A DNA stretch of 64,000 bases from an uncultured Fusibacter sp. (GTDB lineage Bacteria > Bacillota > Clostridia > Peptostreptococcales > Acidaminobacteraceae), in the NCBI GenBank assembly GCA_965140735.1, contig OZ223306.1, positions 1,997,621-2,061,620 of the forward strand, given 5' to 3'. The notes under the pieces were generated by a model. It worked only from the letters and a program-made list of their open reading frames with translations. It was not told where the DNA came from and did no database searches. Below are positions 13,939 to 26,819 of the stretch, one piece after another (the stretch's first letter is position 1; the number at the start of each line of letters is the position of its first letter). A program made the translations under genes and the position numbers.

Positions 13939-13942
13939 ATTT

Positions 13943-14047
13943 AATTGCTCTCTAGTATCCTGTAATTATGGTTTATTGAGAAATTTATGGTTCATTGATT
14001 CAAAAAAATAAACGAACCCTCACATTTGTATAGGTTCGTTCTTTATT
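13943..14047. repeat. Left copy of imperfect ~105-bp direct repeat (attL-like): degenerate integrase 3'-end remnant plus tmRNA-terminator-like hairpin
   Basis: aattgctctctagtatcctgtaattatgg...ttcaaaaaaataaacgaaccctcacatttgtataggttcgttctttatt matches 25865..25979 (the int C-terminus codons plus the ssrA terminator) with several mismatches and one 8-bp indel. The int-like part here is interrupted by a stop. Confidence 0.6.
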
Positions 14048-14058
14048 AAGACAACAAG

Positions 14059-14145
14059 ATTTGAGCCGAAAGCTGTGATGAGGGGTGTTCAACCTCAAAC
14101 AGCGTCAGTGAAAATCGGTTTGAGGCATCAAAAGATGGCTCAAAT
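14059..14145. other. Nested stem-loop structure just inside the island's left end (possible small structured RNA or recombination-site structure)
   Basis: ATTTGAGCC (14059..14067) pairs with GGCTCAAAT (14137..14145). Inner CCTCAAAC (14093..14100) pairs with GTTTGAGG (14118..14125), with a 17-nt loop. Confidence 0.3.
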
Positions 14146-14314
14146 GTTGTTGGTAGGCTGGGCTAGTGGGCATTAAATAAGAACTTTCAAACTGCTCCAA
14201 GAAATTTAGGTCAATCTCAATCTGTTCAGACTTTGTTATAAATACTATTTCTAATTTTACATCGTACAAATAAAGTTTATTCACAAAGATGCCATTTCCA
14301 TGCCACCACCTTCT

Positions 14315-14575
14315 CTATGTGTTAATCTTAAAACATCCTTGATACTCATTAATCTCAGAATGTTCAATCATAGGCGGCTTCACTACAATAAATTCGAAAT
14401 CCACTTGTTTGGCATTATTATAAACCTTCCCATTTTTAGGAAGAGGTACTTTTTTGCCATCCATATAGATCCAAGCACTAACGCTGTACGCTCTATTGAG
14501 TACATTAAATGTACTATTTTTCCTTATCTCAGTTATAGAAAAAATATATATTCCAATTTTATTTCTTATTGACAT
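14315..14575 (-). CDS. Hypothetical protein (86 aa; weak call, overlaps an equally long plus-strand ORF)
   Basis: ORF only. No RBS and no motif. Confidence 0.2.
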   Translation of the reverse strand: MSIRNKIGIYIFSITEIRKNSTFNVLNRAYSVSAWIYMDGKKVPLPKNGKVYNNAKQVDFEFIVVKPPMIEHSEINEYQGCFKINT

Positions 14576-14701
14576 ATTTTTCTATTATGTTACACTACTC
14601 CGTGTAAGTCATACTGTATAGGAGATGTCCATTTGAAGACATAATCTCTCTGCTACTCGATACATATTTCTTGATAAAAATAATATATTAGGAGGATAAA
14701 A

Positions 14702-15139
14702 ATGCAAAAAAAACATATTTATGTTCTAATAAGCCTTATTTCTTTAGGAAGTTTGCTTATAGATGCTTTTGTTTATGCTACAACAGTAAACATATTATAT
14801 TTCATATTGATCTATATTTTATCGTTACTTTCTGCTTCGCTTATTGGAAAATACATATCTAGATTTTTATTAGTCGTTATTGTTTTCCAAATATTATTAA
14901 CCTCTTTAATATTTCCAAAATATAGCTACGAAGATGCCGAAAGGGAAATTTTGGAAATTTATAATCAAGAACAGGTTTTCAATCTAAAGCCTACAACGGC
15001 ACTCACTTCTATTCATTTTTATGAAATTGTTAATTTTGGTTATGTTTTTGAAATTGAATATCAAGGAAAGCGTGTCGAAGTTATTGTCAATCCAAACAAC
15101 TTAGCTGAATACGGAATTCTTGGTGGAAATCATGATTAA
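14702..15139 (+). CDS. Hypothetical membrane protein (145 aa; 3 TM plus soluble C-terminal domain)
   Basis: Strong AGGAGG RBS upstream of the ATG. Hydrophobic N-terminal half. Confidence 0.5.
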   Translation: MQKKHIYVLISLISLGSLLIDAFVYATTVNILYFILIYILSLLSASLIGKYISRFLLVVIVFQILLTSLIFPKYSYEDAEREILEIYNQEQVFNLKPTTALTSIHFYEIVNFGYVFEIEYQGKRVEVIVNPNNLAEYGILGGNHD

Positions 15140-15667
15140 GAAAAATAGTAAGCATCTTATTCATATTTGTTTTAGCAACAACATCGAGATTAGGTGCTTT
15201 TAGTACAGGTCTTGTAAGTGGCCTTATAGGTAGCTATATTGACTCAAAACTTCATTATGCGACTACACTAGACCTGTTGAAAATCACTCTGATCTAGGAT
15301 AATGTAATGGATTTCTAGGATCATGTTATGACCTCGTTGAGGCAGGCATTTGGAATTATTTATTTAACTAAACGTTCAAACAATTTAATATTCACGAAAG
15401 GAAGTTTCAATTATAGATTTATTTAATCATAAATTGATTTCAAAATTTTCTCACACTGTCTAACCAAATAATGCGCTTCCACCGCTACCATGAACTGAAC
15501 CTTATCCTCATTATAGACCCCAAACAAACTCCAACCTGCTTATGTCATTCCCTCAACACGACCCGGCTTAGTTCCATAAACTGACTCAATACGAATTGAG
15601 TCTTTTTTAGTGTAAATGTAAAAATAGTTTAACGCTCTTTGTGCTACAGGTATCTGTTCTCACCTCT

Positions 15668-16185
15668 CTACTCTTCCGCATAATACCGCCTATCCTTATA
15701 CTTCATCACCAACTCTTTCTGAACTCTCACAAGATCAAGATCAAACACCTCAGCAGCCTTTAAAAAATTGAAACTCAGTGCCATATGTAAATCAGCAATC
15801 TGTAATTGATGATAAAAAAAGTCATCCTGCTCACTCACCGACAAATACTGACACTCCCTCTTATTTCTCGTGATCTTCTTGATCGCCTTAGCACTTTCAA
15901 TCGCCTCTTCCATTTCCTCGATCAAACAATCCAGAACAGTGGTATAATTCTCATCCACATTATCAAGCAATGGCATATTAAAAAGACCAAGCTTTCTTTC
16001 AGTGGTATATTCAACCTTTAACCTCGGTTCTTTCACAATTCCTATGACTTTTTCGACTAGATCAGACGGAAACTCCTGAGTACCACGCTCACACTTACTG
16101 TAATTGCTCTGACTCATGCCCAACTGACATCCAGTGAAAGACCTTCTTTATCCCTTGCAAACTTCAAACGTTCGTAAAAGTGCAT
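15668..16185 (-). pseudogene. Frameshifted XRE-family HTH regulator with ~120-aa C-terminal domain (cI-like repressor candidate)
   Basis: ATG at ~16185 with an AAGGAGG RBS encodes MHFYERLKFARDKEGLSLDVSWA* (helix 1-2 of an XRE HTH). After a +2 frame change the 151-aa ORF continues QLGMSQSNYSKCERGTQEFPSDLVEKV (helix 3 onward) plus a C-terminal domain. Together they form one complete HTH_XRE domain. Confidence 0.5.
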
Positions 16186-16296
16186 CCCTCTATCGACCTC
16201 CTTTATTATGAAATTGAATTTTGTCACAATAGAATCAAACTCCTCGATATGATATTAATTAACATGTAAAATCGTGACTTTTATGAATAAAATTCT

Positions 16297-16497
16297 TCAT
16301 TTTGTGACTTTGTTATTAAAAAAAATAGTCCATTCAAATCCAAACAGTTCCGCAATTTTTTTTGCTAACCCTACTGATGGATTTCTTTTACTATTCTCAA
16401 TCTGGGTATAGTGCGTTCTTGAAATACCTACACTATCAGCAACTTTTTGTTGACTCATCCCTTTTTGATTTCTACTGTCAATAAGATACTGTCTCAT
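16297..16497 (-). CDS. Small XRE-family HTH transcriptional regulator (66 aa, cro/cI-like)
   Basis: MSQQKVADSVGISRTHYTQIENSKRNPSVGLAKKIAELFG is a canonical HTH_3 domain. Upstream is a TTGACG-17-TATATT promoter overlapped by GTCACA operator motifs. Confidence 0.75.
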   Translation of the reverse strand: MRQYLIDSRNQKGMSQQKVADSVGISRTHYTQIENSKRNPSVGLAKKIAELFGFEWTIFFNNKVTK

Positions 16498-16661
16498 CGC
16501 ATTCTCCTTTAAGACTCATTTTGTGACTATATTAATAATATAGCCACAATTAGAGTATTCGTCAACACTTTTTTTAACATTCAACATTTTTTTATTACAT
16601 TTTGTTAAATCCAATATTGTCTGTCACAAAAAGAAACACTATAATATAGTAGAGGTGTCAT
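16498..16661. promoter_or_regulatory. Divergent promoter/operator region of the island's regulatory switch
   Basis: Minus-sense TTGACG-17nt-TATATT drives the 66-aa XRE gene. Plus-sense TTGTCT (16617..16622)-17nt-TATAAT (16640..16645) drives the first ImmR-like gene. Repeated TTTGTGACT / GTCACAA motifs at 16521..16530 and 16623..16629 overlap the promoter elements, and similar motifs occur at 16221..16230, 16273..16279 and 16301..16310. Confidence 0.5.
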
Positions 16662-16979
16662 ATGAAAATTAATCGTTTAAGAGATTTAAGAACTGAAAAA
16701 GGACTTACGCAATATGAAATTGCTGATTATTTAAATCTTAAAAGAACAACTTATGCAAATTATGAAAGTGGTACTAGAGAACCCGACTATGAAACTCTTT
16801 TAAAGATATCAGATTTCTTTGATGTTTCAATTGACTACCTATTGGAAAAAACCGATATTCGAAAATATACAGAAGATATTCTCGCTTTCAACTCTACTGA
16901 AGGTTTGACAGAAGATGATCTCAAACTTGTTCATCAGATGATTCAGAATATGCGAGATAAGAATTTGAGTAAGAAGTAG
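16662..16979 (+). CDS. ImmR/SinR-like XRE-family repressor, paralog 1 (HTH plus conserved C-terminal tail)
   Basis: LRTEKGLTQYEIADYLNLKRTTYANYESGTREPDYETLLKISDFFDVSIDYLLEKTD is an HTH_XRE domain with the ..VS.DYLL..TD motif. The C-terminal YTEDILAFNSTEGLTEDDLKLVHQMIQNMRDKN is shared by all four paralogs. Confidence 0.8.
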   Translation: MKINRLRDLRTEKGLTQYEIADYLNLKRTTYANYESGTREPDYETLLKISDFFDVSIDYLLEKTDIRKYTEDILAFNSTEGLTEDDLKLVHQMIQNMRDKNLSKK

Positions 16980-17055
16980 GATTTAATAATTGAGATTAGG
17001 AGCTGTAAGGCTCTTTTTCTAGGATTATACATGGTGAATATTGTTATACTTGAGA
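16872..17055. repeat. Left copy of ~185-bp direct repeat (3' end of ImmR-like gene plus ~75 bp downstream)
   Basis: About 90% identical to 19222..19403 (gaagatattct..gcgagataagaattt..gataattgagattaggagct.taaggctctttttcta..atacatggtga.tattgttata). Confidence 0.7.
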
Positions 17056-17144
17056 AATGTTATCACTCTATTAAGTGTCTCTTTCATATCTAATTGACAA
17101 AATTTTAATTACCTCATTTTTAATAAATTGAGAAAGGAGAAATT

Positions 17145-18197
17145 ATGAATTTATACTACTACTCAAAGCATATGCTAACCATTTTCAATAATAACAATGA
17201 ACTAATAAATTATTTTAAAGAGCTTAGCCTATGTCAAGAAACTCTTATTATCAATCCCAAGGATATAGCAAATTTGCCAGCGGGGGGTACGGAACTGAGC
17301 GAAAGTGTGAATGAAATTAGAAATGAAATTAATGACGATTTGAAAAAAACATTATCAATTATTCGAAAGAATAAACCATTGAATGTGATGTCTTTAATAA
17401 GTAATTTCATCGTTGAATTAATGGCTTCTGATGACACTTTTGGTTCAGACAATAATTTTATCGAAAAATTAAGTGAATTTATTAAACTTCATACTGATGC
17501 CTATTCTGATGAAACACTGCCCCACGTATATAAACTTACTAAATTGAGCTCAAAATTATATCAATCCATTTCTAGTTATATTGAACATTTTGAGTTTATC
17601 GTTGAAAGTAATGAAAAAAACTTTGATTCTATCCCATCTACGCACAATATAATATCAATTAACTCAGATCAAAAAACATATTATATAAGTGAATTTGTCA
17701 ATATTTTTACAAGTATAGAAAAACTATATGAATACATCTGTTTCATTTACCAAATTGATGCTGAAAAACCTAATAATAAATTATTAATTAATGATATTCA
17801 CACTGGTTCGTGGGCTACTGACTTACTTGGAATCAAACAAGTTGTTATTACTATTGAAAACTTATTAAAGGGTATAGGTGTATTTTTAAGAGATCTTATA
17901 ACTGGTCAAATCAGTAAAGAAATGTATCTTAATAAATGTGAACAAATGTCTGCATATATGGATTTAGTTAAAAAAGCAAAAGAAATTGGAATTGATAATC
18001 CGGAAGTCGGTTTATTAAAATGTTTAAAACCATTTGGCGAAATTGCTGAAAAAGGAATGACTACTCTTGAAGTTAATGGAGAAGATGTATTAAATCTCTC
18101 TGCTTACGAAAAATTGATTATAAAAATTATAAAATTGGATCTCGAAAAATTGATTGAAAGTGCCACTCAAATTGAACAATTAGAAGAAAAAGAATAA
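17145..18197 (+). CDS. Hypothetical protein (350 aa), no recognisable domain, embedded inside the ImmR-like array
   Basis: Strong AAAGGAG RBS upstream of the ATG. Predicted soluble and helical-rich, with no motif I can assign. Confidence 0.55.
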   Translation: MNLYYYSKHMLTIFNNNNELINYFKELSLCQETLIINPKDIANLPAGGTELSESVNEIRNEINDDLKKTLSIIRKNKPLNVMSLISNFIVELMASDDTFGSDNNFIEKLSEFIKLHTDAYSDETLPHVYKLTKLSSKLYQSISSYIEHFEFIVESNEKNFDSIPSTHNIISINSDQKTYYISEFVNIFTSIEKLYEYICFIYQIDAEKPNNKLLINDIHTGSWATDLLGIKQVVITIENLLKGIGVFLRDLITGQISKEMYLNKCEQMSAYMDLVKKAKEIGIDNPEVGLLKCLKPFGEIAEKGMTTLEVNGEDVLNLSAYEKLIIKIIKLDLEKLIESATQIEQLEEKE

Positions 18198-18263
18198 ACT
18201 GAAACTGATTTTTTTGACATGTTGGTGAATTTTTTCCGAGCTAATATAAAAAATATTCATCTA

Positions 18264-18327
18264 ATGATATCAAACTTGTTCATCAGATGATCCAAAACAT
18301 GCGGAATAAGAATTTGGGTAAGAAATA
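18264..18327 (+). pseudogene. 3'-terminal remnant (last ~21 codons) of a further ImmR-like paralog
   Basis: gatatcaaacttgttcatcagatgatccaaaacatgcggaataagaatttgggtaagaaatag encodes ...DIKLVHQMIQNMRNKNLGKK* with no 5' part. It is followed by the shared 5' leader of the next paralog. Confidence 0.6.
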
Positions 18328-18347
18328 GAATTTACATTAGGTGAAAT

Positions 18348-18668
18348 ATGCTATTTAGTGAAAGATTCAAGGCTTTAAGACAAGAAAAAGAATTAACTCA
18401 AACAGAACTTGCAAATAAGCTAAATATTTCTCAAGGTTCTGTTGCAATGTATGAAAGTGGAAAAAGAATACCTGAAAATAATGTGCTTATATTATTGTCT
18501 AAGTTTTTTGATGTCTCAACTGATTATTTATTAGGACTTACTGATATAAGAAAATACTCAGAAGATATTCTTGCTTTTAATTCTACTGAAGGTTTAACTG
18601 AAGACGATCTCAGACTTGTTCATCAAATGATTCAAAATTTAAGAGATAAAAATTCAGGAAATAAGTAA
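18348..18668 (+). CDS. ImmR/SinR-like XRE-family repressor, paralog 2
   Basis: MLFSERFKALRQEKELTQTELANKLNISQGSVAMYESGKRIPENNVLILLSKFFDVSTDYLLGLTD plus the conserved tail. The first ~75 nt are identical to paralog 4. Confidence 0.8.
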   Translation: MLFSERFKALRQEKELTQTELANKLNISQGSVAMYESGKRIPENNVLILLSKFFDVSTDYLLGLTDIRKYSEDILAFNSTEGLTEDDLRLVHQMIQNLRDKNSGNK

Positions 18669-18669
18669 G

Positions 18670-18987
18670 ATGATAAAATTAAGACTACGAGAATTAAGAC
18701 AATCAAAACAACTAACACAGGAAGAACTCTCTAAAATTTTAAAAATTCCTAGATCTACATATGCAAATTATGAAAATGGAAGCAGAGAGCCTGATAATAA
18801 TACAATTTCTTTAATATCTGATTATTTTAATGTATCAGTAGACTACCTTTTTGGTAAAACTGATATAAAAAAATACACCGAGGATATTCTTGCTTTTAAT
18901 TCTACAGAGGGTTTAACTGAAGATGATCTTAAACTTGTTCATCAAATGATTCAGAATATGCGGGATAAAAATTTAGGTAAGAAATAA
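18670..18987 (+). CDS. ImmR/SinR-like XRE-family repressor, paralog 3
   Basis: MIKLRLRELRQSKQLTQEELSKILKIPRSTYANYENGSREPDNNTISLISDYFNVSVDYLFGKTD plus the conserved tail. The start codon sits 2 nt after the stop of paralog 2. Confidence 0.8.
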   Translation: MIKLRLRELRQSKQLTQEELSKILKIPRSTYANYENGSREPDNNTISLISDYFNVSVDYLFGKTDIKKYTEDILAFNSTEGLTEDDLKLVHQMIQNMRDKNLGKK

Positions 18988-19006
18988 AATTTACATTAGG
19001 TGAAAT

Positions 19007-19327
19007 ATGCTATTTAGTGAAAGATTCAAGGCGTTAAGAGAAGAAAAAGGATTAACACAAGAAGAACTCTCTAAAATTCTTGGTGTTGGACGATCCACAA
19101 TTGCTGGATATGAAACAAAATCAAAGCAACCTAACTATGAACTTTTAAATAAAATTTCAATTTTTTTTGATGTGTCTACTGACTATTTACTAGGTCTTAC
19201 TGATGTAAAAAAATATTCAGAAGATATTCTTGCCTTCAACTCTACTGAAGGTTTGACAGAAGATGATATCAAACTGGTTCATCAGATGATTCAAAATATG
19301 CGAGATAAGAATTTGGGTAAGAAATAG
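19007..19327 (+). CDS. ImmR/SinR-like XRE-family repressor, paralog 4
   Basis: MLFSERFKALREEKGLTQEELSKILGVGRSTIAGYETKSKQPNYELLNKISIFFDVSTDYLLGLTD plus the conserved tail. Confidence 0.8.
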   Translation: MLFSERFKALREEKGLTQEELSKILGVGRSTIAGYETKSKQPNYELLNKISIFFDVSTDYLLGLTDVKKYSEDILAFNSTEGLTEDDIKLVHQMIQNMRDKNLGKK

Positions 19328-19403
19328 AATTTGATAATTGAGATTAGGAGCTATAAGGCTCTTTTTCTAAGATCATACATGGTGATTATTGTTATAAGTG
19401 CTA
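19222..19403. repeat. Right copy of ~185-bp direct repeat flanking the ImmR-like array
   Basis: See 16872..17055. The repeats bracket a 2.35 kb segment holding the 350-aa ORF and paralogs 2-4. Confidence 0.7.
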
Positions 19404-19514
19404 ATCGTATCACAATTGTACATTATTATATGATTACTACTTAGTTTAGGCATTTCAAAATAATTTACATTAAAAACAAAAAAATATTCAGATTTATTCA
19501 AAGAGGGGGATTCA

Positions 19515-20804
19515 ATGGTATTAAAATTATCTGCATTTACAGTGATTATCATAACGATATTATCTATTGTTGCTTTAGACATAGTTGCACACTTAATCGC
19601 TCACTTAATTGGAAACACCAATCCAAAATGGTATAAGCTTTTAGGTATAGTTTCATTTCTTTATATTGTATGCTACACTTCACTAACGGCAACCGGATTC
19701 CTTGTAATAAACAAAACTCTAGATGGTGAAAATGAATCTATTGTAAGTCAAAATTCAAATGAAATTTACTCAGTTACTGCTAAATCTGATCCTGCTAGTG
19801 CTTCAATATTCTCAGGAACTGGATATAATTTTAAAACCGGAGACTCTTATTCTGTTGATGTTGAGTACGATAAAACGAAGTATCGTTTTGATGGATGGGA
19901 AGGCGATAACGAAGGTACTATTTCATCTATGGATGTCTATCTTATAGCACATTTCACACCGATTATGTATTCTGTCAATGCAAAAGCATCTCCCCCTGAA
20001 GCTGCAACTTTCTATGGAATAGGGGATAATTTTGACTCTGGCGATAAATTTAATATAACTTTTACCTACGATAAGAATAAGTATAAATTTGAAAGTTGGT
20101 CAAAAGATAATTCTGGTATTGTAGAAAATGCCGATATAAATTTATTAGCAACTTTTACTCCTATTTACTACACCGTCACAGCCGTTTCCAATCCGCCTAA
20201 TGTAACATCTTTCAATGGAACTGGTACCGATTTTTTTTATGGAGATCCCTATAACGTTACACTAACTGATAATCTAGATAACTATGAATTTGTTAAATGG
20301 TCTAATGATAACTCTGGTGTGATCTCTGGTAACAATATTAATTTAATTGCTGAGTTTCAAGAAAAGGAAGTTTTCGACAGCATTAGTTCTCTTAATTTCT
20401 TATCAAAAGCGGAAGTTCATGCTTCAATAAAATCATTTACATCTAATTATGGAACTACATATTATGACTCATTTGTAGTACAAGACGGCATATTAGAAGG
20501 TGGTCACTCAAAATATGAGATCGTTTTAGATGGAAAATATAAAAAATTTAAGGCTGTTATGGCAGCAACACAAAGAATGTCTGAGGCACGTGTATTTAAA
20601 AACTTTGGAGAAGTTTTAATTAAAGGCGATGGAGAAACACTCTACGATAATGTTATTAATAGTAATGATAAACCTGTAGATATTGACATTGATATTAGTA
20701 ATATTGATATTTTAGAAGTCCAAGTTTATGTAGCCGCTGGTGCCGGCTATAATTCAGCCGAAACCTTGGAAATTGGTGTTGGTGATATGAAATTTTGTTA
20801 TTAA
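19515..20804 (+). CDS. Membrane-anchored surface protein with three Listeria-Bacteroides (Flg_new-type) repeats and a C-terminal NPCBM/NEW2-like putative carbohydrate-binding domain
   Basis: N-terminal TM segment. Three ~65-aa repeats (YSVTAKSDP..GTGYNF.TGDSYSVDVEYDKTKYRFDGW / YSVNAKASP..KYKFESW / YTVTAVSNP..NYEFVKW) match the Flg_new pattern. C-terminal ..DGKYKKFKAVMAATQRMSEARVFKNFGEV...LEVQVYVAAGAGYNSAETLEIGVGDMKF resembles NPCBM. Confidence 0.55.
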   Translation: MVLKLSAFTVIIITILSIVALDIVAHLIAHLIGNTNPKWYKLLGIVSFLYIVCYTSLTATGFLVINKTLDGENESIVSQNSNEIYSVTAKSDPASASIFSGTGYNFKTGDSYSVDVEYDKTKYRFDGWEGDNEGTISSMDVYLIAHFTPIMYSVNAKASPPEAATFYGIGDNFDSGDKFNITFTYDKNKYKFESWSKDNSGIVENADINLLATFTPIYYTVTAVSNPPNVTSFNGTGTDFFYGDPYNVTLTDNLDNYEFVKWSNDNSGVISGNNINLIAEFQEKEVFDSISSLNFLSKAEVHASIKSFTSNYGTTYYDSFVVQDGILEGGHSKYEIVLDGKYKKFKAVMAATQRMSEARVFKNFGEVLIKGDGETLYDNVINSNDKPVDIDIDISNIDILEVQVYVAAGAGYNSAETLEIGVGDMKFCY

Positions 20805-20889
20805 AATATCCCACTATTCTTTTTTATATTTATATGCCTATTGATTTACTATTACAGACTATACTATATCTAGAGGAAGGACTAAATAT

Positions 20890-22473
20890 ATGCTTAAGCC
20901 CAAAAGTAACAAGTACACATTTGAAAGTATAGACATAAGCAAACTAATTCTCAATCCACAAAATGCTCGATTTTATTCTGGACAGGAAAATGAATCGGAA
21001 TTTGATACTGTAAATGAAATGCTTAATTTAAAGGATTCTCATATTGTTCCATTAGCACTAGACATTGATAAAAACGACTTAAACTCACATGAACTTTTAA
21101 TTGTAAAGCCTATAGAAAATAACCAATACTTTGTTCTAGAAGGTAATCGAAGAACCACTGCAATTAAGCTAATGACTCAATATAAAAACGAATTACAGAA
21201 CTTAGATTTGAGGGCTACAGATATTAAAAAACTTCTAGTTACAAAATATAACAATACCATGCTCCCATGTGTTGTATCATCTGATGATGATTATATTAAT
21301 CAATTATTAGAGCGAACACATACTGCAAAAAAAGGGATTAGCCGAGCTATGTGGAATCCACTGGCTGCGGATAATTTTAGAGATAGTCTTGGCCAACCCT
21401 CAAAGCGAAAAACGCTTCTTGATATGGTGCTTTCATCTGAGTTTTGTACAGAAAAAGTTATCGAAATAGCTTCTTCAGATAGATGGATAGCACAATTTGC
21501 TCGTTTTACGAAAAAAAATGATGTCATGAGAAATTATTTCGGAGTTGAGTTCATTGACAATGAAAATGTTTTATTAATCTGGAATGAAAAAATAACAGTT
21601 GAACGCTTATGCCAATTAATATATGATTGTAAAGCCTTAAAGGCTTCTGAGATGGCTCAAACAGATGAACTCATTGATAATTATTTAAATAATAATATCC
21701 TTGATTTTAATGTTCTCAATCCAAGTGAATTTAATAATCCAATAATTGCATATAATCACGAGGTAAATCAGTTTTACCCTACAGATAAAGAAAACAAACA
21801 TTACCGTGAGATCGAATTGCCTACTGTAGTTGCATCCCCTAGCAAAACTGCTCCAACTATTACTGAAAATACATCCATGACTTCCTCATCTCACAATATT
21901 GTTACTCATCCTACTACAGATTTGATATCTGAAATCTATCCTGATATTACTATTGAAAGTGAATTACTTGACGACATTGATCCTGTACTGGATCCAGGAT
22001 TAAAAAGAGGTCCTAAACCTAACATTACTTTGATTTCTAGAAAATATCATATTCCAATTTCAGATCAGAGAGTCCAAGATCTATTTGCAGAGTTGAAAAA
22101 ATTACCTTTAAATCACTATATTAATGTTGGAGCAATAGGTTTTCGATCACTCATTGAATTTACAGTAAATATTTATATTGAAAAAGTTATGAACAAAAAA
22201 TTAGGTTCTTATCATTCCTTAGAAGAAAAAGTTATAGCTGTGTATAAACGAATTTCTGGAAATATAGGTGCTGGTGAAGCTAAAAAGTTTATGCCTGCTT
22301 TTTCAATAGATATTGAAAGTGATAAGATCTCTGAATGTGGTGTTATTTCAATTCTAAACACCTTAATTCACAATCATAATTTACATCCTACTATTTCTGA
22401 TTTACAGCAAAGTTTTAAAAATTATTACATGTTTTTAAAATTTTCTTGGAGTGATATCAACAAATTTTATTGA
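20890..22473 (+). CDS. ParB/Sulfiredoxin-fold N-terminal domain protein (527 aa) with GxRRxxA NTP-binding/nuclease-like motif and long uncharacterised C-terminal region
   Basis: ILNPQNARF...LLIVKPIENNQYFVLEGNRRTTAIKLM matches the ParB N-terminal domain (ParBc), including the GERRxRA-like box (GNRRTTA). The remaining ~400 aa have no motif I recognise. Confidence 0.6.
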   Translation: MLKPKSNKYTFESIDISKLILNPQNARFYSGQENESEFDTVNEMLNLKDSHIVPLALDIDKNDLNSHELLIVKPIENNQYFVLEGNRRTTAIKLMTQYKNELQNLDLRATDIKKLLVTKYNNTMLPCVVSSDDDYINQLLERTHTAKKGISRAMWNPLAADNFRDSLGQPSKRKTLLDMVLSSEFCTEKVIEIASSDRWIAQFARFTKKNDVMRNYFGVEFIDNENVLLIWNEKITVERLCQLIYDCKALKASEMAQTDELIDNYLNNNILDFNVLNPSEFNNPIIAYNHEVNQFYPTDKENKHYREIELPTVVASPSKTAPTITENTSMTSSSHNIVTHPTTDLISEIYPDITIESELLDDIDPVLDPGLKRGPKPNITLISRKYHIPISDQRVQDLFAELKKLPLNHYINVGAIGFRSLIEFTVNIYIEKVMNKKLGSYHSLEEKVIAVYKRISGNIGAGEAKKFMPAFSIDIESDKISECGVISILNTLIHNHNLHPTISDLQQSFKNYYMFLKFSWSDINKFY

Positions 22474-22526
22474 TTATCATCCCTCTCCATGGTATAGTAT
22501 ATTGAGCAAAAAAATGAGGAGGGCAT

Positions 22527-24158
22527 ATGAAAATTTTACTAATTGAACCAAGTTATAAAAATAAATATCCCCCTTTAGGATTAATGAAAATCGCTACTTA
22601 CCATAAATCTCGTGGAGATTATGTTTACTTCCATAAAGGGCTATATGATACAGACGAAAGTTGGGATCGAGTTTATATCACTTCGTTATTTACTTTTGAT
22701 TTTGATTTAGTCGTCAAATCAGTTGAGTACTATAAAAAAATTTTTACTGATAAAAATAAGATTTATCTTGGTGGAATTGCTGCTACGCTTTTAGAAGAAA
22801 AATTCAGAACCACTACTAAGTTAGACAATATGTTGACTGGTAGATTAACAAATTCTTCTCAAATTGGTTTTGATGACAATGTGAATATTGATTCATTGAT
22901 CCCAGATTATGATATTTTGATGGATACTGATTATAAGTACGGCACTGGCGATAGCATAATAAGTTATACTTCCCGTGGATGTATTAACACATGTTCATTT
23001 TGTGCAGTCCCGCTACTTGAAGGTCAGCTTACAACGGTAAACAATATTAGCTCTCAGATCAATACTATTAGAGATAAATATGGCGACAAAAGAAATCTAT
23101 TGCTGCTTGATAATAATATTCTTGGTTTTGATGAAGCTTATCTCACTAAATTCGTAACTGAGCTTAATCAGCTTGGATATATAAATACGCCATCTTATTA
23201 TCGAGTAACACGATTTGAAGAATTAATGGGCTATTATTATCGACAACTTGCTAACGGTTGTAGAACATTAAATGCATTGAAATTGATTGAAGAGTTCTTA
23301 CAAGAACTGTTAATTAAGACTACTGTCTCAGCTTCAAATAAAGAGATCATACAAGATATTCTTGATGAAGCTTACGCCGCATCCGACTTCTTTGATGTAA
23401 TGGAAAGTCGATATAATGAGATTGTTGATATTAGTACCTTCCATTATTTAAGAAATCCTCTTCAAAGATATGTGGATTTCAATCAAGGATTAGATGCGCG
23501 AGAGTTGACTCCTGAGAAAATGAAAATTCTTGCCAGACTACCGATCCGCCCATACCGTTTTGCTTTCGATAATATTAAATCAAAAGATGAATATTCTAAA
23601 GCAATCCGATTGGCTTCTGATCACGGTGTTAGACACTTTTCAAATTATTTGCTCTATAATTTTAAAGATGATCCTGTCGAGCTATACGAACGGATTATGT
23701 TAAATTTAGAATTGGTTGAAGAATTAGATCTAGTAATTTATTCATTTCCAATGAAATATGCACCTATTGATAAAACCAATCGAAAATATATAGGTGAAAA
23801 ATGGAATGCACATTTCTTGAGAATGTTTCAAGCTATTATTAATGTGACAAAAGGTGTAGTCGCAGGTGATCGTTCTTTCTTAGAGACTGCATTTGGTCAC
23901 ACTAAAGAAGAATATATTGAATTATTGCATATGCCACACGATTTTATAGTTTATAGAAATTTTTACCAAAATATCGGATTAACAGCTGACTGGAAAAAAG
24001 AATTTTCAAAATTGTCAAAATCACAAAAAGAAAAACTCATTGAAATAATTTCAACACTAAAATATGAAACTGATATCAATGAATTAAAACCTATTATTAA
24101 ATTCTATACAATGAGATACAAGCAAATTAAAGAGATCCCCAATTCAACAGCAAGTTGA
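22527..24158 (+). CDS. Cobalamin-binding-domain (class B) radical SAM enzyme, 543 aa
   Basis: N-terminal MKILLIEPSYKNKYPPLGLMKIATYHKSRGDYVYF matches the B12-binding domain signature of class B rSAM proteins. YTSRGCINTCSFCAVP gives a CxxxCxxC radical-SAM cluster motif. There is a long C-terminal extension without Cys clusters. GAGGAGG RBS upstream. Confidence 0.65.
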   Translation: MKILLIEPSYKNKYPPLGLMKIATYHKSRGDYVYFHKGLYDTDESWDRVYITSLFTFDFDLVVKSVEYYKKIFTDKNKIYLGGIAATLLEEKFRTTTKLDNMLTGRLTNSSQIGFDDNVNIDSLIPDYDILMDTDYKYGTGDSIISYTSRGCINTCSFCAVPLLEGQLTTVNNISSQINTIRDKYGDKRNLLLLDNNILGFDEAYLTKFVTELNQLGYINTPSYYRVTRFEELMGYYYRQLANGCRTLNALKLIEEFLQELLIKTTVSASNKEIIQDILDEAYAASDFFDVMESRYNEIVDISTFHYLRNPLQRYVDFNQGLDARELTPEKMKILARLPIRPYRFAFDNIKSKDEYSKAIRLASDHGVRHFSNYLLYNFKDDPVELYERIMLNLELVEELDLVIYSFPMKYAPIDKTNRKYIGEKWNAHFLRMFQAIINVTKGVVAGDRSFLETAFGHTKEEYIELLHMPHDFIVYRNFYQNIGLTADWKKEFSKLSKSQKEKLIEIISTLKYETDINELKPIIKFYTMRYKQIKEIPNSTAS

Positions 24159-24193
24159 AACAGTTTACATTCTAAAAATAAAATGTTATCCTA

Positions 24194-24228
24194 GAAACAG
24201 AACGTGTGTTCTGTTTCTTTTTTTTATT
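24194..24228 (+). terminator. Rho-independent terminator after the radical SAM gene
   Basis: AGAAACAGAAC-GTGT-GTTCTGTTTCT followed by T8. Confidence 0.7.
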
Positions 24229-24246
24229 TTAGGAGGCTACTCACTA

Positions 24247-24744
24247 ATGACCAAACTACTCGACATAATCACCACCCTTGGCATCCACATCGAATACAGC
24301 CCCGATCTTCCCTCTAAAATCAGAGGGTTTTATTATAAGGACTCAGGCGATGAGATCATCGTCATGAATGAAGACATCAAAGACGAAACCGAGTTCCGTC
24401 ACGTCTTAGCGCATGAACTAGGGCACTATTTTACCACTATAACGACTAAATCGCTCTCGCCTTATTCGTCATATCTGGATATACTTAATACCCACAGAAA
24501 CGAATCTCGTGCGATTAGATGGGCATGTGATTACCTTATCCCTACATACGATCTCATAGACTATCTAAAATCACAAAAGGGTATCTCAGTGGCAGATATC
24601 GCACAGGCATTTAAAGTCACAGAGGAAATGATCACCATGAAATTAACCATCATGAGTCTTGAAAGGCTCTACTGGAAAGTCGATGATAAAAGACAGTTGG
24701 TCCTCACTTCCCTACCCTCTATTTATATGTATACGCCATTATAA
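24247..24744 (+). CDS. ImmA/IrrE-family zinc metallopeptidase (anti-repressor protease candidate)
   Basis: VLAHELGHYF holds the HEXXH motif in the position typical of ImmA/IrrE (COG2856-like). The gene sits immediately upstream of the integrase, as immA does in ICEBs1. AGGAGG RBS upstream. Confidence 0.7.
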   Translation: MTKLLDIITTLGIHIEYSPDLPSKIRGFYYKDSGDEIIVMNEDIKDETEFRHVLAHELGHYFTTITTKSLSPYSSYLDILNTHRNESRAIRWACDYLIPTYDLIDYLKSQKGISVADIAQAFKVTEEMITMKLTIMSLERLYWKVDDKRQLVLTSLPSIYMYTPL

Positions 24745-24767
24745 TTTTTACGAAAGGAGTTGATCAT

Positions 24768-25886
24768 ATGGCGAAAAAGACAAACTTTGAAACCAATGGC
24801 AAAGAATATTACCGTGTTAGGGCTCAGATCGGTATTAATGATCAGGGTAAGCAGATCATGAAGGTCTTTTATGGCACTTCTAAAAAAGAGGCTGAGTTAA
24901 AGCGTGATGAGTACTTTGCAAACCTCAGACGTGGTATGGCACTGGATTATGACAAGTTGAAGTTTTCGGACTTCTTTTCCAATTGGCTCGATATCGTTCA
25001 TAGACCCACACTGGCACAAAGCTCATATAACCGCTATGATACGATTCATCGGATATGGATATCACAGAGTGGCTTCTACACCATGAAGCTCACTGCTATT
25101 AAGAGTATGAACATACAGCAGTATATGAACACCATCGACAAGGTACCCACTGCTGAAAAGATGTATATGCTCTTGTCCTCATTTTTTAAGTATTGCATCA
25201 GAGAAAGGGTACTCACCTTTAATCCTATGGACAACGTGCGCAAACCGAAGCAAAAACAAGTCGAAAGTAAAAAGCATCTTGATCGTGATGAAATCGCACT
25301 GCTCACTGAAGCTTACAGTGCAGATCAAAGTCTATTCGTCTATTTATTCGCATTGTTCACAGGTCTTAGACAAGGCGAGATTTTGGCGCTTACACATGCA
25401 GATATTGAAAATGATCTGATCAAGGTGAATAAAACACTGAACAGAGTTAAAAAGGATGGCAGAAACCAAGTGATCGTCACTGCACCTAAAACGCCATCAA
25501 GCATTCGGGTGATTCCCTTATTTGATGAATTAAAAGAGCCACTGAGGCGACATGTCATTCTTGAAAAAGAAAAGCATCTCCGACTTGGGATTCATTTTTC
25601 TAAAAGCAATCATCTTTTCACTGCAAATAACTGTTCTCCCATCAGAGGCGATCGCTTAACTTCAAGATGGCGAAAACTTCAAAATCAATTAGGAATTGAG
25701 GAAGATGTAAACTTTCACGCTTTACGTCATACTTTTTGCACGCTACTTGCCTCAAAAGGTGTCCCTCTAAAAACAGCTGCCACACTTATGGGCCATTCAG
25801 GTATAGAAACCACTGCTCGGATTTATACGCATGTGGATGTAGATTCTAAGATCGAAGCGATCAAATTGCTCTCTGGTATTATGTAA
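24768..25886 (+). CDS. int: Tyrosine-type site-specific integrase
   Basis: N-terminal SAM-like and core-binding region. C-terminal catalytic HALRHTF...LMGHSGIETTARIYTHV (R, H-x-x-R, Y). Adjacent to the ssrA 3' flank, with an AAAGGAG RBS upstream. Confidence 0.85.
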   Translation: MAKKTNFETNGKEYYRVRAQIGINDQGKQIMKVFYGTSKKEAELKRDEYFANLRRGMALDYDKLKFSDFFSNWLDIVHRPTLAQSSYNRYDTIHRIWISQSGFYTMKLTAIKSMNIQQYMNTIDKVPTAEKMYMLLSSFFKYCIRERVLTFNPMDNVRKPKQKQVESKKHLDRDEIALLTEAYSADQSLFVYLFALFTGLRQGEILALTHADIENDLIKVNKTLNRVKKDGRNQVIVTAPKTPSSIRVIPLFDELKEPLRRHVILEKEKHLRLGIHFSKSNHLFTANNCSPIRGDRLTSRWRKLQNQLGIEEDVNFHALRHTFCTLLASKGVPLKTAATLMGHSGIETTARIYTHVDVDSKIEAIKLLSGIM

Positions 25887-25979
25887 TTATGGCTTATCGA
25901 AAACTTTATGGTTAAATTATGGTTAATTGATTCAAAAAAACAAACGAACCCTTGCATTTGCAAAGGTTCGTTCTTTATT
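25865..25979. repeat. Right copy of direct repeat (attR-like) = integrase 3' end plus ssrA rho-independent terminator
   Basis: Minus-sense hairpin GAACGAACCTTTGCAAATGCAAGGGTTCGTT followed by a T-run, directly downstream of tmRNA. The sequence is repeated imperfectly at 13943..14047. Confidence 0.6.
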
Positions 25980-26343
25980 GGTGGAGCCGAGGGGAATCGA
26001 ACCCCTGTCCAAAAACAAATTCCTATCACTTTCTCCGAGCGCAGTCGCTTCATAAAATTCGCTCACAAGCACGTTTAACGACACACACACTAGCAAGCTA
26101 TTTCTATTATACTACCAAATCAAATTAGAAAAGCATCTGATACAGAGACCCCAGCAGGGTTTAGGTCAATGATCCTAGGCGGCTGAGATAAGGCCTAGGG
26201 TTGACGCTGCGATTAGGCAGCTAGTGCAAAATTTTCGTTTGCAATTATATTTAAGTGGTCCAGTTCATTAACGTGTACCCCAGACCAAGAAACACGGCTC
26301 GCTTACAACAGTGCATCATCCCTGTCGAAACCTGGACGGCCCC
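25979..26343 (-). ncRNA. ssrA: tmRNA (SsrA), ~365 nt, tag peptide reading frame ANENFALAA*
   Basis: 5' end GGGGCCGTCCAGGTTTCGACAGGGATGATGCACTG... and 3' end ...GGGGTTCGATTCCCCTCGGCTCCACCA, i.e. acceptor stem and T-arm. Internal GCA AAC GAA AAT TTT GCA CTA GCT GCC TAA encodes a typical ..ALAA degradation tag. smpB lies immediately upstream. Confidence 0.85.
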
Positions 26344-26357
26344 ATGAATGAGTTTGC

Positions 26358-26819
26358 CTATCTGTTATACTCTTTCAAGGCTTTTTGAATCTTGCGTTCA
26401 GCATCTTTTTTCGCAAGTGTATCGCGCTTATCGTAATTCTTCTTCCCTTTAGCAACCGCAATTTCAATCTTAACCAGACCTCTTGGGTTGATATAGAGTC
26501 TAAGTGGCACAAGTGTATAACCATCACGCGTTTTCAGATCTTCCATTTTGAAGATCTCACGCTTGTGTAACAAGAGCCTTCTCGTTCTAAGAGGATCTTT
26601 GTTAAACTGATTACCATGATCATACGGTGTAATATTCATCCCAATGATGAACATTTCGCCATTTCTGATCTCAGCATAAGCTTCTTTGATACTTGCTTTA
26701 CCAGCTCTGATGGATTTCACTTCTGTTCCGAAAAGCTCAAGACCCGCCTCATACGTATCTTCTATGAAGTAGTCGTGTCTAGCTTTTTTGTTGTTTGATA
26801 TGAGTTTAAATTCAGCCAT
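26358..26819 (-). CDS. smpB: SsrA-binding protein SmpB
   Basis: MAEFKLISNNKKARHDYFIEDTYEAGLELFGTEVKSIRAGKASIKEAYAEI... is canonical SmpB. It sits 14 nt upstream of the tmRNA 5' end. Confidence 0.9.
   Translation of the reverse strand: MAEFKLISNNKKARHDYFIEDTYEAGLELFGTEVKSIRAGKASIKEAYAEIRNGEMFIIGMNITPYDHGNQFNKDPLRTRRLLLHKREIFKMEDLKTRDGYTLVPLRLYINPRGLVKIEIAVAKGKKNYDKRDTLAKKDAERKIQKALKEYNR

Follow-up and report, generated by a model that had tools for sequence, protein, structure and literature searches.

What might a ParB-like protein and a radical SAM enzyme, encoded side by side in an integrative island of an uncultured Fusibacter sp., do together? Considering the window (the whole 64,000-nucleotide stretch of DNA analysed here), a preliminary description had proposed that these two genes, hereafter A and B, form a novel nucleic-acid modification or phage-defence module. 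Our analysis found that a defence or nucleic-acid-modification reading does fit best, as a variant of a known system rather than as something wholly unknown.

Gene structure and the surrounding island

Both open reading frames were recovered on the same strand with the coordinates, sizes and intervening gap originally given for them (Table 1), and each is more than a chance open reading frame, since homologues of B number in the thousands and those of A form a large family of their own (see below). Gene A is preceded by the ribosome-binding sequence GGAAGG. No terminator-like site was found inside the A-B spacer, which together with the strong Shine-Dalgarno sequence ahead of B implies that A and B are co-transcribed, and as read from the sequence the two genes constitute one operon. 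The terminator reported at 24194..24228 was matched by an 11-bp stem followed by a T-run at 24193-24218(+10).

The surrounding integrase-bearing island likewise proved real. The lower-GC DNA at ssrA lies between imperfect direct repeats of ~108-119 nt (13940-14047 and 25861-25979) that end exactly at the 3' end of the tmRNA gene, and the island contains the ImmA and integrase genes as well as Xre-type HTH genes. Pfam and PADLOC annotation of the window proteins revealed no Dnd or Dpd genes in the island. We rejected the NPCBM/InlB-repeat membrane protein as a possible third component, since none of the other loci has it conserved ahead of A.

Table 1. Coordinates of the A-B module, its encoded domains and the neighbouring features within the window.
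Feature	Position	Strand	Description
Integrative island with A-B module	13940..25979		~11.9 kb; lower GC; imperfect direct repeats
Membrane-anchored NPCBM/InlB-repeat protein	19515..20804		429 aa; upstream of A
Gene A	20890..22473	+	527 aa; PD-Lambda-5_A homologue (ORF, PADLOC, phrog_9592, AF2 model)
A residues ~10-170	20917..21399	+	Predicted ParB/Srx-like domain
A residues 302-367	21793..21990	+	Probably disordered linker; pLDDT <50; gapped in alignments
A residues ~380-527	22027..22470	+	Predicted HEPN-like helical domain
A-B spacer	22474..22526	+	53 nt; Shine-Dalgarno GAGGAGG 6 nt ahead of B start codon
Gene B	22527..24158	+	543 aa; radical SAM enzyme of a large uncharacterised family
B residues 1-~115	22527..22871	+	Predicted Rossmann-like, B12-binding-like domain; NKYPPLGLMKIATYHK motif
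B residues ~140-425	22944..23801	+	Predicted partial TIM-barrel radical SAM core (invariant columns, secondary structure)
B residues 152-159	22980..23003	+	CINTCSFC = CxxxCxxC [4Fe-4S]/SAM motif (alignments)
B residues 428-543	23808..24155	+	C-terminal all-helical domain
Intrinsic terminator closing the putative A-B operon	24193..24228	+	11-bp stem, 4-nt loop, T-run
ImmA/Peptidase_M78 gene	24247..24744		Downstream of A-B terminator
Tyrosine integrase gene	24768..25886		Downstream of ImmA gene
tmRNA (ssrA) gene	25979..26343	-	ARAGORN; island abuts its 3' end
smpB	26358..26819		Beside tmRNA gene

Protein A and the PD-λ-5 family

A search of the PADLOC models matched A to PDLC03998 (PD-Lambda-5_A) at E 3e-54, with A residues 11-520 aligned to profile positions 4-464 of 466; 21 further PD-Lambda-5_A models and phrog_9592 (E 2e-27) also matched, and these profile alignments identify A as a full-length homologue of PD-Lambda-5_A. 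A word-indexed homologue search with A returned 7 proteins, and its repetition with their alignment added none; the family became visible only through an exhaustive search of representative sequences, in which it comprised 1672 clusters at E ≤ 1e-30.

In experiments, PD-λ-5 has been validated as an anti-phage system of broad range: it was recovered in a phage-based selection and, as tested for the E. coli prototype only, shields its host from many phages (Vassallo et al. 2022, Nat Microbiol; PMC9519451). Its authors see in it an RM+Abi system in compacted form that includes a methyltransferase, and its cloning needed an mrr-deleted host (PMC9519451), which suggests that the methyltransferase methylates host DNA. 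Like PD-λ-5, the module described here is a predicted two-gene operon with A first and a SAM-using enzyme second, carried on a prophage or island, and all positions that are strictly invariant in the family are conserved in A. It differs in that A shares ~20-24% identity with canonical members, its disordered linker being longer than theirs, and in that the second gene encodes a 543-aa radical SAM enzyme instead of a ~290-aa D12-class (Dam-like) N6-adenine DNA methyltransferase. The A family was thus already known, as PD-Lambda-5_A, which makes the module a variant of a described system; in the open-access literature we found no paper describing the pairing of an A-type protein with a radical SAM enzyme.

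Protein A is laid out as a ParB/Srx-like N-domain, a helical middle domain, a disordered linker and a HEPN-like C-domain. A Pfam scan detected no family in A even at E ≤ 10, ParB_N and ParBc models included, NCBIfam likewise gave no match for A, and the ParB/Srx assignment rests on motifs and on the AF2 model (pLDDT 80), in which the N-domain has a predicted ParB/Srx fold; the ParB-like domain claimed at the outset thus stands on motif and fold, while its Pfam counterpart went undetected. The reported LEGNRRTTAIK sequence lies at residues 83-93, and its EGNRR region (nt 21136-21168) belongs to a GxxRxxA-type arginine motif, E84-G85-N86-R87-R88-x-x-A91; N25-x-R27 constitutes an NPR-type motif (NAR here). 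Residues N25, R27, N86, R87 and R88 are invariant in 68 A-family sequences, and G85, K93, H144, G149 and W155 complete the family-invariant set of the domain. The C-terminus, previously called unassigned, instead has a predicted up-down helical HEPN fold with invariant or near-invariant R394, E401, N412, R419, E423 and [N/H]490-x3-H494-N495. The canonical Rx4-6H HEPN motif is absent from this domain, as the invariant H494 has N/H and not R at position -4.

Two further comparisons bear on A. No ParA-type gene adjoins it, either in the window or in the other A-B loci, its domain architecture is different, and in locus L085 a bona fide ParA/ParB_N pair is present separately, 6 kb away; a role as a partition ParB, which the preliminary description had kept in view, was rejected on these grounds. 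The module resembles DndB/DpdB systems in encoding a ParB/Srx-superfamily protein beside a (here putative) DNA-modifying enzyme on mobile islands, but A has EGNRR and not DGQHR, carries an additional HEPN-like domain and is accompanied by no dndACDE, dpdA/C or queuosine-pathway genes, the candidate modifier being a radical SAM protein. The DndB/DpdB analogy drawn earlier consequently fails for A and applies instead to a sister architecture of the same radical SAM family, described below.

The radical SAM family and its genomic partners

The cluster motif of B was located where it had been reported (Table 1), and C152, C156 and C159 are invariant in 77 B-family sequences as the sole invariant cysteines of the family. 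The core carries the motifs DNN (195-197), DFNQG (317-321), SNYxLxN (372-378) and SFPM (406-409), interrupted by a variable helical insert (~203-307) that is missing in type-iii and phage homologues. Pfam searches, which had been proposed as a check, gave a sub-threshold Radical_SAM match (PF04055, 17.9 bits against a gathering cut-off of 29.5; several homologues carry a precomputed PF04055 match) and no B12-binding match in the window proteins, and a PDB sequence search with A and B returned nothing useful; as for A, it was structure prediction that yielded fold assignments. The predicted structure of B contains a partial TIM-barrel radical SAM fold and an N-terminal Rossmann-like domain of the cobalamin-binding type, and both assignments are made from motifs together with this prediction.

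The best structural match of B was MgmA, and Mmp10 was also among the matches. The closest solved relatives act on protein (MgmA), small molecules (AprD4, TsrM, CysS) or tRNA and ribosomal protein (MiaB, RimO), and none of them on DNA; no recognisable DNA-binding domain was detected in B. The designation of B as a cobalamin-dependent class B enzyme is retained as a structural resemblance, in a fold class that also holds MiaB/RimO and AprD4, the last of which is not known to use cobalamin. Phage homologues of ~300 aa have no C-terminal helical domain and a reduced N-terminal one (HMM matches skip ~60-138 of the B profile), which makes it less likely that cobalamin is an obligatory cofactor throughout the family. 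A MiaB/RimO-type methylthiotransferase was rejected as an identity for B, the three conserved auxiliary-cluster cysteines of the N-domain being missing.

Compared with class B radical SAM enzymes and their relatives (MgmA, TsrM, CysS, TokK, OxsB, AprD4), B is 10-18% identical, has its own invariant motifs, helical insert and helical C-domain, and occurs in a context of defence and DNA machinery instead of biosynthesis. It is not a member of the curated class B equivalogs (PhpK, BzaD, HpnJ, MJ_0865 and others); its best NCBIfam score was 20.7 bits against cut-offs of 360-775, with matches confined to the cluster-motif region. Nucleic acids in which a radical SAM enzyme has methylated adenine at an sp2 carbon are already known from Cfr/RlmN; these enzymes belong, however, to a different class (class A), have no B12-like domain and act on RNA, and no specific similarity of B to them was detected. 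PADLOC gave no match for B even at E ≤ 1, so that tools needing both PD-λ-5 components are expected to miss the module.

We then considered the neighbourhoods in which A and B occur. The arrangement A followed by B recurs in at least 13 independent loci outside the window, all on mobile elements and spread over different elements and taxa, with both genes on the same strand and a gap of 47-122 nt (L001, L003, L004, L081, L083/84, L085/86, L087, L088/L170, L089, L168 and L169, where L088 and L170 are the same IMG/VR contig). In these loci the module is cargo, adjoining integrases, lying in Tn7-like cargo or standing amid other defence genes. Among 80 viral loci with A-family genes, the gene that follows came from a single homologous family in 66 of 79 cases, and all seven sampled members of that family with a Pfam match were D12-class N6-adenine DNA methyltransferases (PF02086); L082 shows an A-family gene and a D12-class methyltransferase in the same arrangement. 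In the clade of the window, B thus fills the DNA-methyltransferase slot of the A family. In a neighbour-joining tree of 114 B homologues, the A-linked B proteins formed one clade nested within GHKL-linked diversity, indicating a single module exchange.

The B family as a whole, present in at least 586 species of bacteria and archaea and labelled only "hypothetical" or "radical SAM protein", occurs mostly in NurA-HerA-GHKL-rSAM operons (HerA profile E 1e-54 against 7f6d), in which it resembles HerA defence systems (Sir2-HerA, DUF4297-HerA) and HerA-NurA; unlike these, the window module has no HerA, NurA or GHKL, and no described HerA system with a radical SAM enzyme was found in the open-access literature. 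Other members lie in helicase-ParB_N-like-DndB-like-rSAM-GHKL operons, where a DndB-family (DGQHR) protein is encoded directly ahead of the radical SAM enzyme; the N-domain of A is homologous to the ParB_N-like partner in these sister operons. PIN-like proteins, beside NurA and HEPN-like ones, are encoded in B-family operons, and 4-nt overlaps of the B-family gene with the GHKL gene are common. No PADLOC-annotated system was detected in the B-family operons examined. These operons also contain no conventional methyltransferase, which leaves B as the sole candidate modifier. Short solitary B homologues, with neither A nor a GHKL partner, were present in many phage contigs.

A proposed self-marking module and its rivals

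Taken with the partner swap, these neighbourhoods lead us to favour, tentatively and with something less than confidence, the reading that A and B make up a modification-dependent module of the PD-λ-5 type that acts against phage and whose radical SAM enzyme writes a self-mark on DNA. B would stand in for the Dam-like methyltransferase of canonical PD-λ-5 and would covalently mark host DNA in a radical-SAM-dependent reaction, of which C-methylation is the simplest possibility. A would be the sensor and effector: its ParB/Srx-like N-domain would engage DNA in an NTP-dependent manner, its HEPN-like C-domain would serve as a nuclease or abortive-infection effector, and the protein would spare marked DNA while acting on unmarked incoming DNA; that A reads the mark is proposed by analogy. 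The module would travel as cargo of the ssrA-integrating island and would probably be self-addictive as well. The location of the B family elsewhere among DNA-handling machinery counts for DNA marking, and so does the occurrence of solitary phage homologues, which resemble orphan methyltransferases in this respect. The replacement of the partner within the A family is compatible with functional equivalence without proving it. Counting against the self-mark reading are the substrates of the closest solved relatives, the lack of a DNA-binding domain in B and the missing Rx4-6H motif in A.

The module might also serve defence with B as an effector or metabolite-producing enzyme controlled by A (or by GHKL/HerA elsewhere), for example by synthesising an antiviral compound in the manner of viperins (a modified nucleotide or another small molecule), by radical damage to invading nucleic acid or by draining SAM. 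We regard this as unlikely, considering that effector candidates are already at hand in these operons in NurA and in the HEPN-like and PIN-like proteins, that B sits exactly in the slot of a constitutively active DNA methyltransferase, and that solitary phage homologues are more easily seen as protective modifiers than as suicide effectors. Still less probable is that B is a maturase acting on the protein encoded beside it (A in this module, GHKL or ParB-like proteins in other operons), for instance by side-chain C-methylation, with the partner alone being functional. The match to MgmA, a protein glutamine C-methyltransferase, and to Mmp10 would suit such an activity, as would the tight gene coupling and the overlaps with GHKL genes; yet ParB-HEPN and GHKL partners have unrelated folds while the core motifs of B are invariant everywhere, canonical PD-λ-5_A proteins work without any radical SAM enzyme, and the phage homologues exist without either partner.

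Restriction-modification-like pairs can behave as addiction modules, and the module adjoins the integrase at the island end, as it also does in L081 and L083, so that A could be toxic and B protective, mainly stabilising the island with no significant antiviral role. We consider this account improbable, given that the A family came from a phage selection and protects against many phages (PMC9519451), although addiction is compatible with defence and the two are not mutually exclusive. The GxRRxxA motif of A and the structural likeness of B to class B methylases might finally suggest unrelated neighbours, a plasmid or ICE partition ParB next to a natural-product or cofactor methyltransferase. 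Conservation of the pair in at least 13 loci effectively refutes this reading, to which we give next to no credence: no parA adjoins A, NCBIfam biosynthetic models reached ~20 bits against cut-offs of 360-600, and no biosynthetic genes flanked B homologues in ~160 loci. A biosynthetic class B methylase was rejected for the same lack of biosynthetic neighbours, and B does not group with biosynthetic methyltransferases.

Extending the self-mark reading from the pair to the family, we put forward with greater doubt that B-family proteins are DNA-modifying radical SAM enzymes writing a new covalent self-mark that is read or exploited by at least three unrelated restriction/effector modules, namely ParB-HEPN (PD-λ-5_A), NurA-HerA-GHKL and helicase/ParB_N/DndB-like/GHKL, with the phage orphans serving as counter-defence. 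To our knowledge, the DNA self-marks of prokaryotic immunity are classical SAM-dependent base methylation, phosphorothioation (Dnd/Ssp), 7-deazaguanines (Dpd) and a few phage hypermodifications; if a radical SAM enzyme has replaced the methyltransferase of a validated defence system, a new chemistry of DNA marking would be indicated. If this reading is true, a large unannotated radical SAM family, found in at least 586 species genomes, gains a function and represents a new widespread class of restriction-modification-like immunity in bacteria and archaea. The natural module swap also offers a genetic handle, as Dam and the radical SAM enzyme appear exchangeable beside the same sensor/effector, and helps to clarify how PD-λ-5 works. 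The pairing of A with a radical SAM enzyme in place of a methyltransferase suggests that bacteria can label their DNA as self in a new way.

A two-gene operon in an island at ssrA

Genes A and B, both on the + strand, were found at exactly the coordinates given in the preliminary description, and the terminator it had assigned to the operon was recovered downstream of B. No terminator was detected in the spacer between the two genes. The proposed integrase-bearing island was also borne out, with an integrase, repeats and a tmRNA boundary. Imperfect direct repeats of ~110 nt (~85% identical) flank the island and end precisely at the tmRNA 3' end; they enclose ~11.9 kb of lower-GC DNA, and the A-B module is therefore carried as cargo by an integrative island associated with ssrA. 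The repeats take in the terminator hairpin of ssrA as well as the final codons of the integrase gene, and the left repeat starts right at the stop of a 172-aa ORF that may be what is left of an element that occupied this site before. Other island genes encode five Xre-type HTH proteins, an NPCBM/InlB-repeat protein anchored in the membrane and a 350-aa protein that matched no family. The four tandem HTH genes share 70-74% nucleotide identity and a repeated ~146-nt junction, and the island HTH genes may form a controller (C-protein-like) component.

Features of the A-B operon and the surrounding island
Feature	Position	Strand	Remark
ORF, 904 aa	10244..12958	-	just beyond left end of island; no Pfam match
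ORF, 172 aa	13420..13938		no Pfam match
Left repeat	13940-14047
Fifth, divergent Xre-family HTH gene	16297..16497	-
Xre-family HTH_3 genes, four tandem paralogues	16662..16979, 18348..18668, 18670..18987, 19007..19327	+	~105 aa each
ORF, 350 aa	17145..18197	+	no Pfam, PADLOC, NCBIfam or PHROG match
Gene A	20890..22473	+	ORF, 527 aa
LEGNRRTTAIK	A residues 83-93
A-B spacer			53 nt; strong Shine-Dalgarno GAGGAGG
Gene B	22527..24158	+	ORF, 543 aa
CINTCSFC	B residues 152-159
Operon-closing terminator	24193-24228		11-bp hairpin and T-run
ImmA/Peptidase_M78	24247..24744		downstream of operon
Tyrosine integrase	24768..25886		downstream of operon
Right repeat	25861-25979
tmRNA gene	25979..26343	-	smpB next

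A PD-λ-5 homologue and a radical SAM protein

Protein A had no match in Pfam or NCBIfam and matched the PD-Lambda-5_A model PDLC03998 of a defence-system library end to end (E 3e-54), as well as 21 further PD-Lambda-5_A models of that library. PD-λ-5, an already known system, was found in E. coli by phage selection and protects against nearly all phages tested (PMC9519451). By an exhaustive profile search the A family is large, with 6296 clusters at a cut-off of E<=1e-3 and 1672 clusters at E<=1e-30. In the AlphaFold model of A (68 sequences, pLDDT 80), four parts follow one another: an α/β domain at the N-terminus, a helical domain in the middle, a linker predicted to be disordered (302-367) and a helical C-terminal domain. 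The ParB-like N-domain described earlier stood, with N25, R27, N86, R87, R88, H144, G149 and W155 invariant in the family, and the C-terminus, previously unassigned, is HEPN-like, with invariant E401 and H494 and near-invariant R394, N412, R419 and E423. In the A family, [N/H]xxxHN stands in place of the classical HEPN Rx4-6H motif. Every strictly invariant family position is kept in the A protein of the window.

The well-conserved B family comprises at least 7672 matches, nearly all annotated as hypothetical or "radical SAM protein". The CxxxCxxC triad provides its only invariant cysteines, alongside the invariant motifs NKYPPxGLMKxxxYHK, DNN, DFNQG, SNYxLxN and SFPM; methylthiotransferases, in contrast, have auxiliary-cluster cysteines of their own, which B lacks. 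Comparison of B with known enzymes gave values of 20.2 (MgmA), 19.9 (AprD4), 19.2 (TsrM), 19.1 (RimO), 18.1 (CysS), 17.1 (MiaB), 14.7 (TokK) and 11.2 (OxsB), and none of its closest solved relatives acts on DNA. Of the earlier assignment to cobalamin-dependent class B radical SAM (rSAM) enzymes, the class B-like architecture is supported, together with the triad, but curated class B equivalogs matched at only ~20 bits, around the cluster motif, so that B is at most a candidate cobalamin-dependent methyltransferase. B also had no match in PADLOC-DB v2, and annotation tools needing both PD-λ-5 components are therefore expected to miss the module.

Conservation of the pair and exchange of partners

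The neighbourhood conservation proposed earlier as a check was found: a B homologue is immediately preceded, in the same orientation and with a gap of 47-122 nt, by a full-length A homologue in a Clostridia MAG (L001), Alkaliphilus hydrothermalis (L003), Pectinatus frisingensis (L004), L081, L083/84 (Eubacterium callanderi protein), L085/86, a Negativicutes MAG (L087, as Tn7-like cargo) and the viral contigs L088/L170 (one IMG/VR contig), L089, L168 and L169. The setting is mobile in every case. ImmA and/or integrase directly follow the pair in L081 and L083, as in the window, and often, in several other A-B loci, an Xre-type HTH gene related to those of the island lies directly upstream of A. 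The L085 element also encodes RepA_N and a separate ParA/ParB_N pair, which shows that A is not the partition protein. This single mobile element (L085/L086, 6355-9626 and 13317-17383) has two rSAM architectures, one on each side of its integrase: the A-B pair and an operon of a 261-aa protein, GHKL (504 aa) and rSAM (565 aa). The related viral contigs L169 and L171 (5852-7369) have identical downstream genes; L169 encodes an A-like protein (482 aa, partial profile coverage) with B, and L171 encodes B without A, possibly as an orphaned modifier.

Among 80 viral loci with A-family genes, 66 of 79 genes following A were members of one and the same homologous family, and all sampled members with a Pfam match were D12-class (Dam-like) N6-adenine DNA methyltransferases, the partner also seen in L082 and L166. 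An rSAM occupied this slot in the window clade only. Across 80 sampled genomes of many phyla, archaea among them, A was not the usual neighbour of B: a GHKL ATPase (HATPase_c_3, Hsp90/HtpG-like N-domain) lay beside B in 68 loci, and ~44 of the 80 had a full operon of ~385-aa, ~556-aa, GHKL and rSAM proteins (e.g. L013:3608-9677; L005-L080, L172-L180), spanning Clostridia, Bacteroidota, Spirochaetota, Desulfobacterota, Verrucomicrobiota and archaea. In this operon, HerA is the 556-aa protein (profile E 1e-54 against 7f6d_B), and the 385-aa protein is weakly NurA-like (E 0.009 against 7f6d_H); against PADLOC system models, these components gave weak partial matches only (component F2 to mad8, E 3e-7). 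In variants, an insertion adds either two paired AAA_15/NsnB-like ATPases or a ~333-aa protein together with a second GHKL.

A third architecture, on viral contigs and on plasmids of Alphaproteobacteria (e.g. pNL1, pR132505), has the gene order helicase, ParB_N-like, DGQHR/DndB-like (Pfam DndB E 5e-8), rSAM and GHKL, with PIN-like and ATPase genes near; its ParB_N-like protein is homologous to the N-domain of A (hhalign probability 95.6%, E 1.2e-8). Both plasmids (L247, NC_002033.1 58383-68740; L249, NC_012854.1) are conjugative, with a PIN-like protein and an ATPase flanking the operon, and pNL1 has an additional second large DGQHR protein.

Short B homologues (~280-320 aa) with the core motifs kept are a common feature of phage contigs in which A, GHKL, HerA and NurA are all missing (phrog_9298), an arrangement reminiscent of the orphan methyltransferases that phages carry. 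Those at L200-L246 (e.g. L202:6001-6936, L236:5977-6903), several from human-gut samples, keep RGCxNxCxFC, DNN, DFNQG and an N-terminal LMKxxxxHK, but have neither the helical insert nor the C-domain. Their 3' end is overlapped by a conserved ~335-aa gene, with a ParB_N protein or a helicase of SNF2 type sometimes near. In Marinitoga camini virus 1 (L248, KP836355.1 37383-41209), a cultured thermophile virus, the gene for the 360-aa B homologue UF08_54, annotated hypothetical, runs convergently to genes annotated as HerA and NurA-type.

Proposed roles of A and B

No B-family operon contains a conventional methyltransferase, and each combines a plausible nuclease or effector (NurA, PIN-like, HEPN-like) with an NTP-driven DNA-engaging protein (HerA, GHKL, ParB-like, helicase). 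From this context we propose that B would modify DNA, as the modification half of restriction-modification-like systems, while A, or NurA-HerA-GHKL, would act as the discrimination/effector half. This is the most economical reading, because the A-family slot otherwise holds an enzyme methylating host DNA. It is unlikely that B is instead an effector or a metabolite-producing enzyme, and we give little credence to a role as maturase of a partner protein; a pure addiction module, which is compatible with defence, likewise has a slim chance. Unrelated neighbours, a partition protein beside a biosynthetic enzyme, are effectively excluded by the refutation criteria of the preliminary description, which were tested here.

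We found no description in the open-access literature searched of an rSAM-containing PD-λ-5 variant, nor of NurA-HerA-GHKL-rSAM or ParB_N/DndB-like-rSAM-GHKL operons, although such absence is no proof. In a neighbour-joining tree of 114 B homologues, the A-linked proteins all fell in one clade nested within GHKL-linked diversity; the window module is therefore a chimera of a PD-λ-5 sensor/effector and the rSAM of a GHKL-type system. Tentatively, the rSAM family may represent a new DNA-marking chemistry common to several defence architectures.
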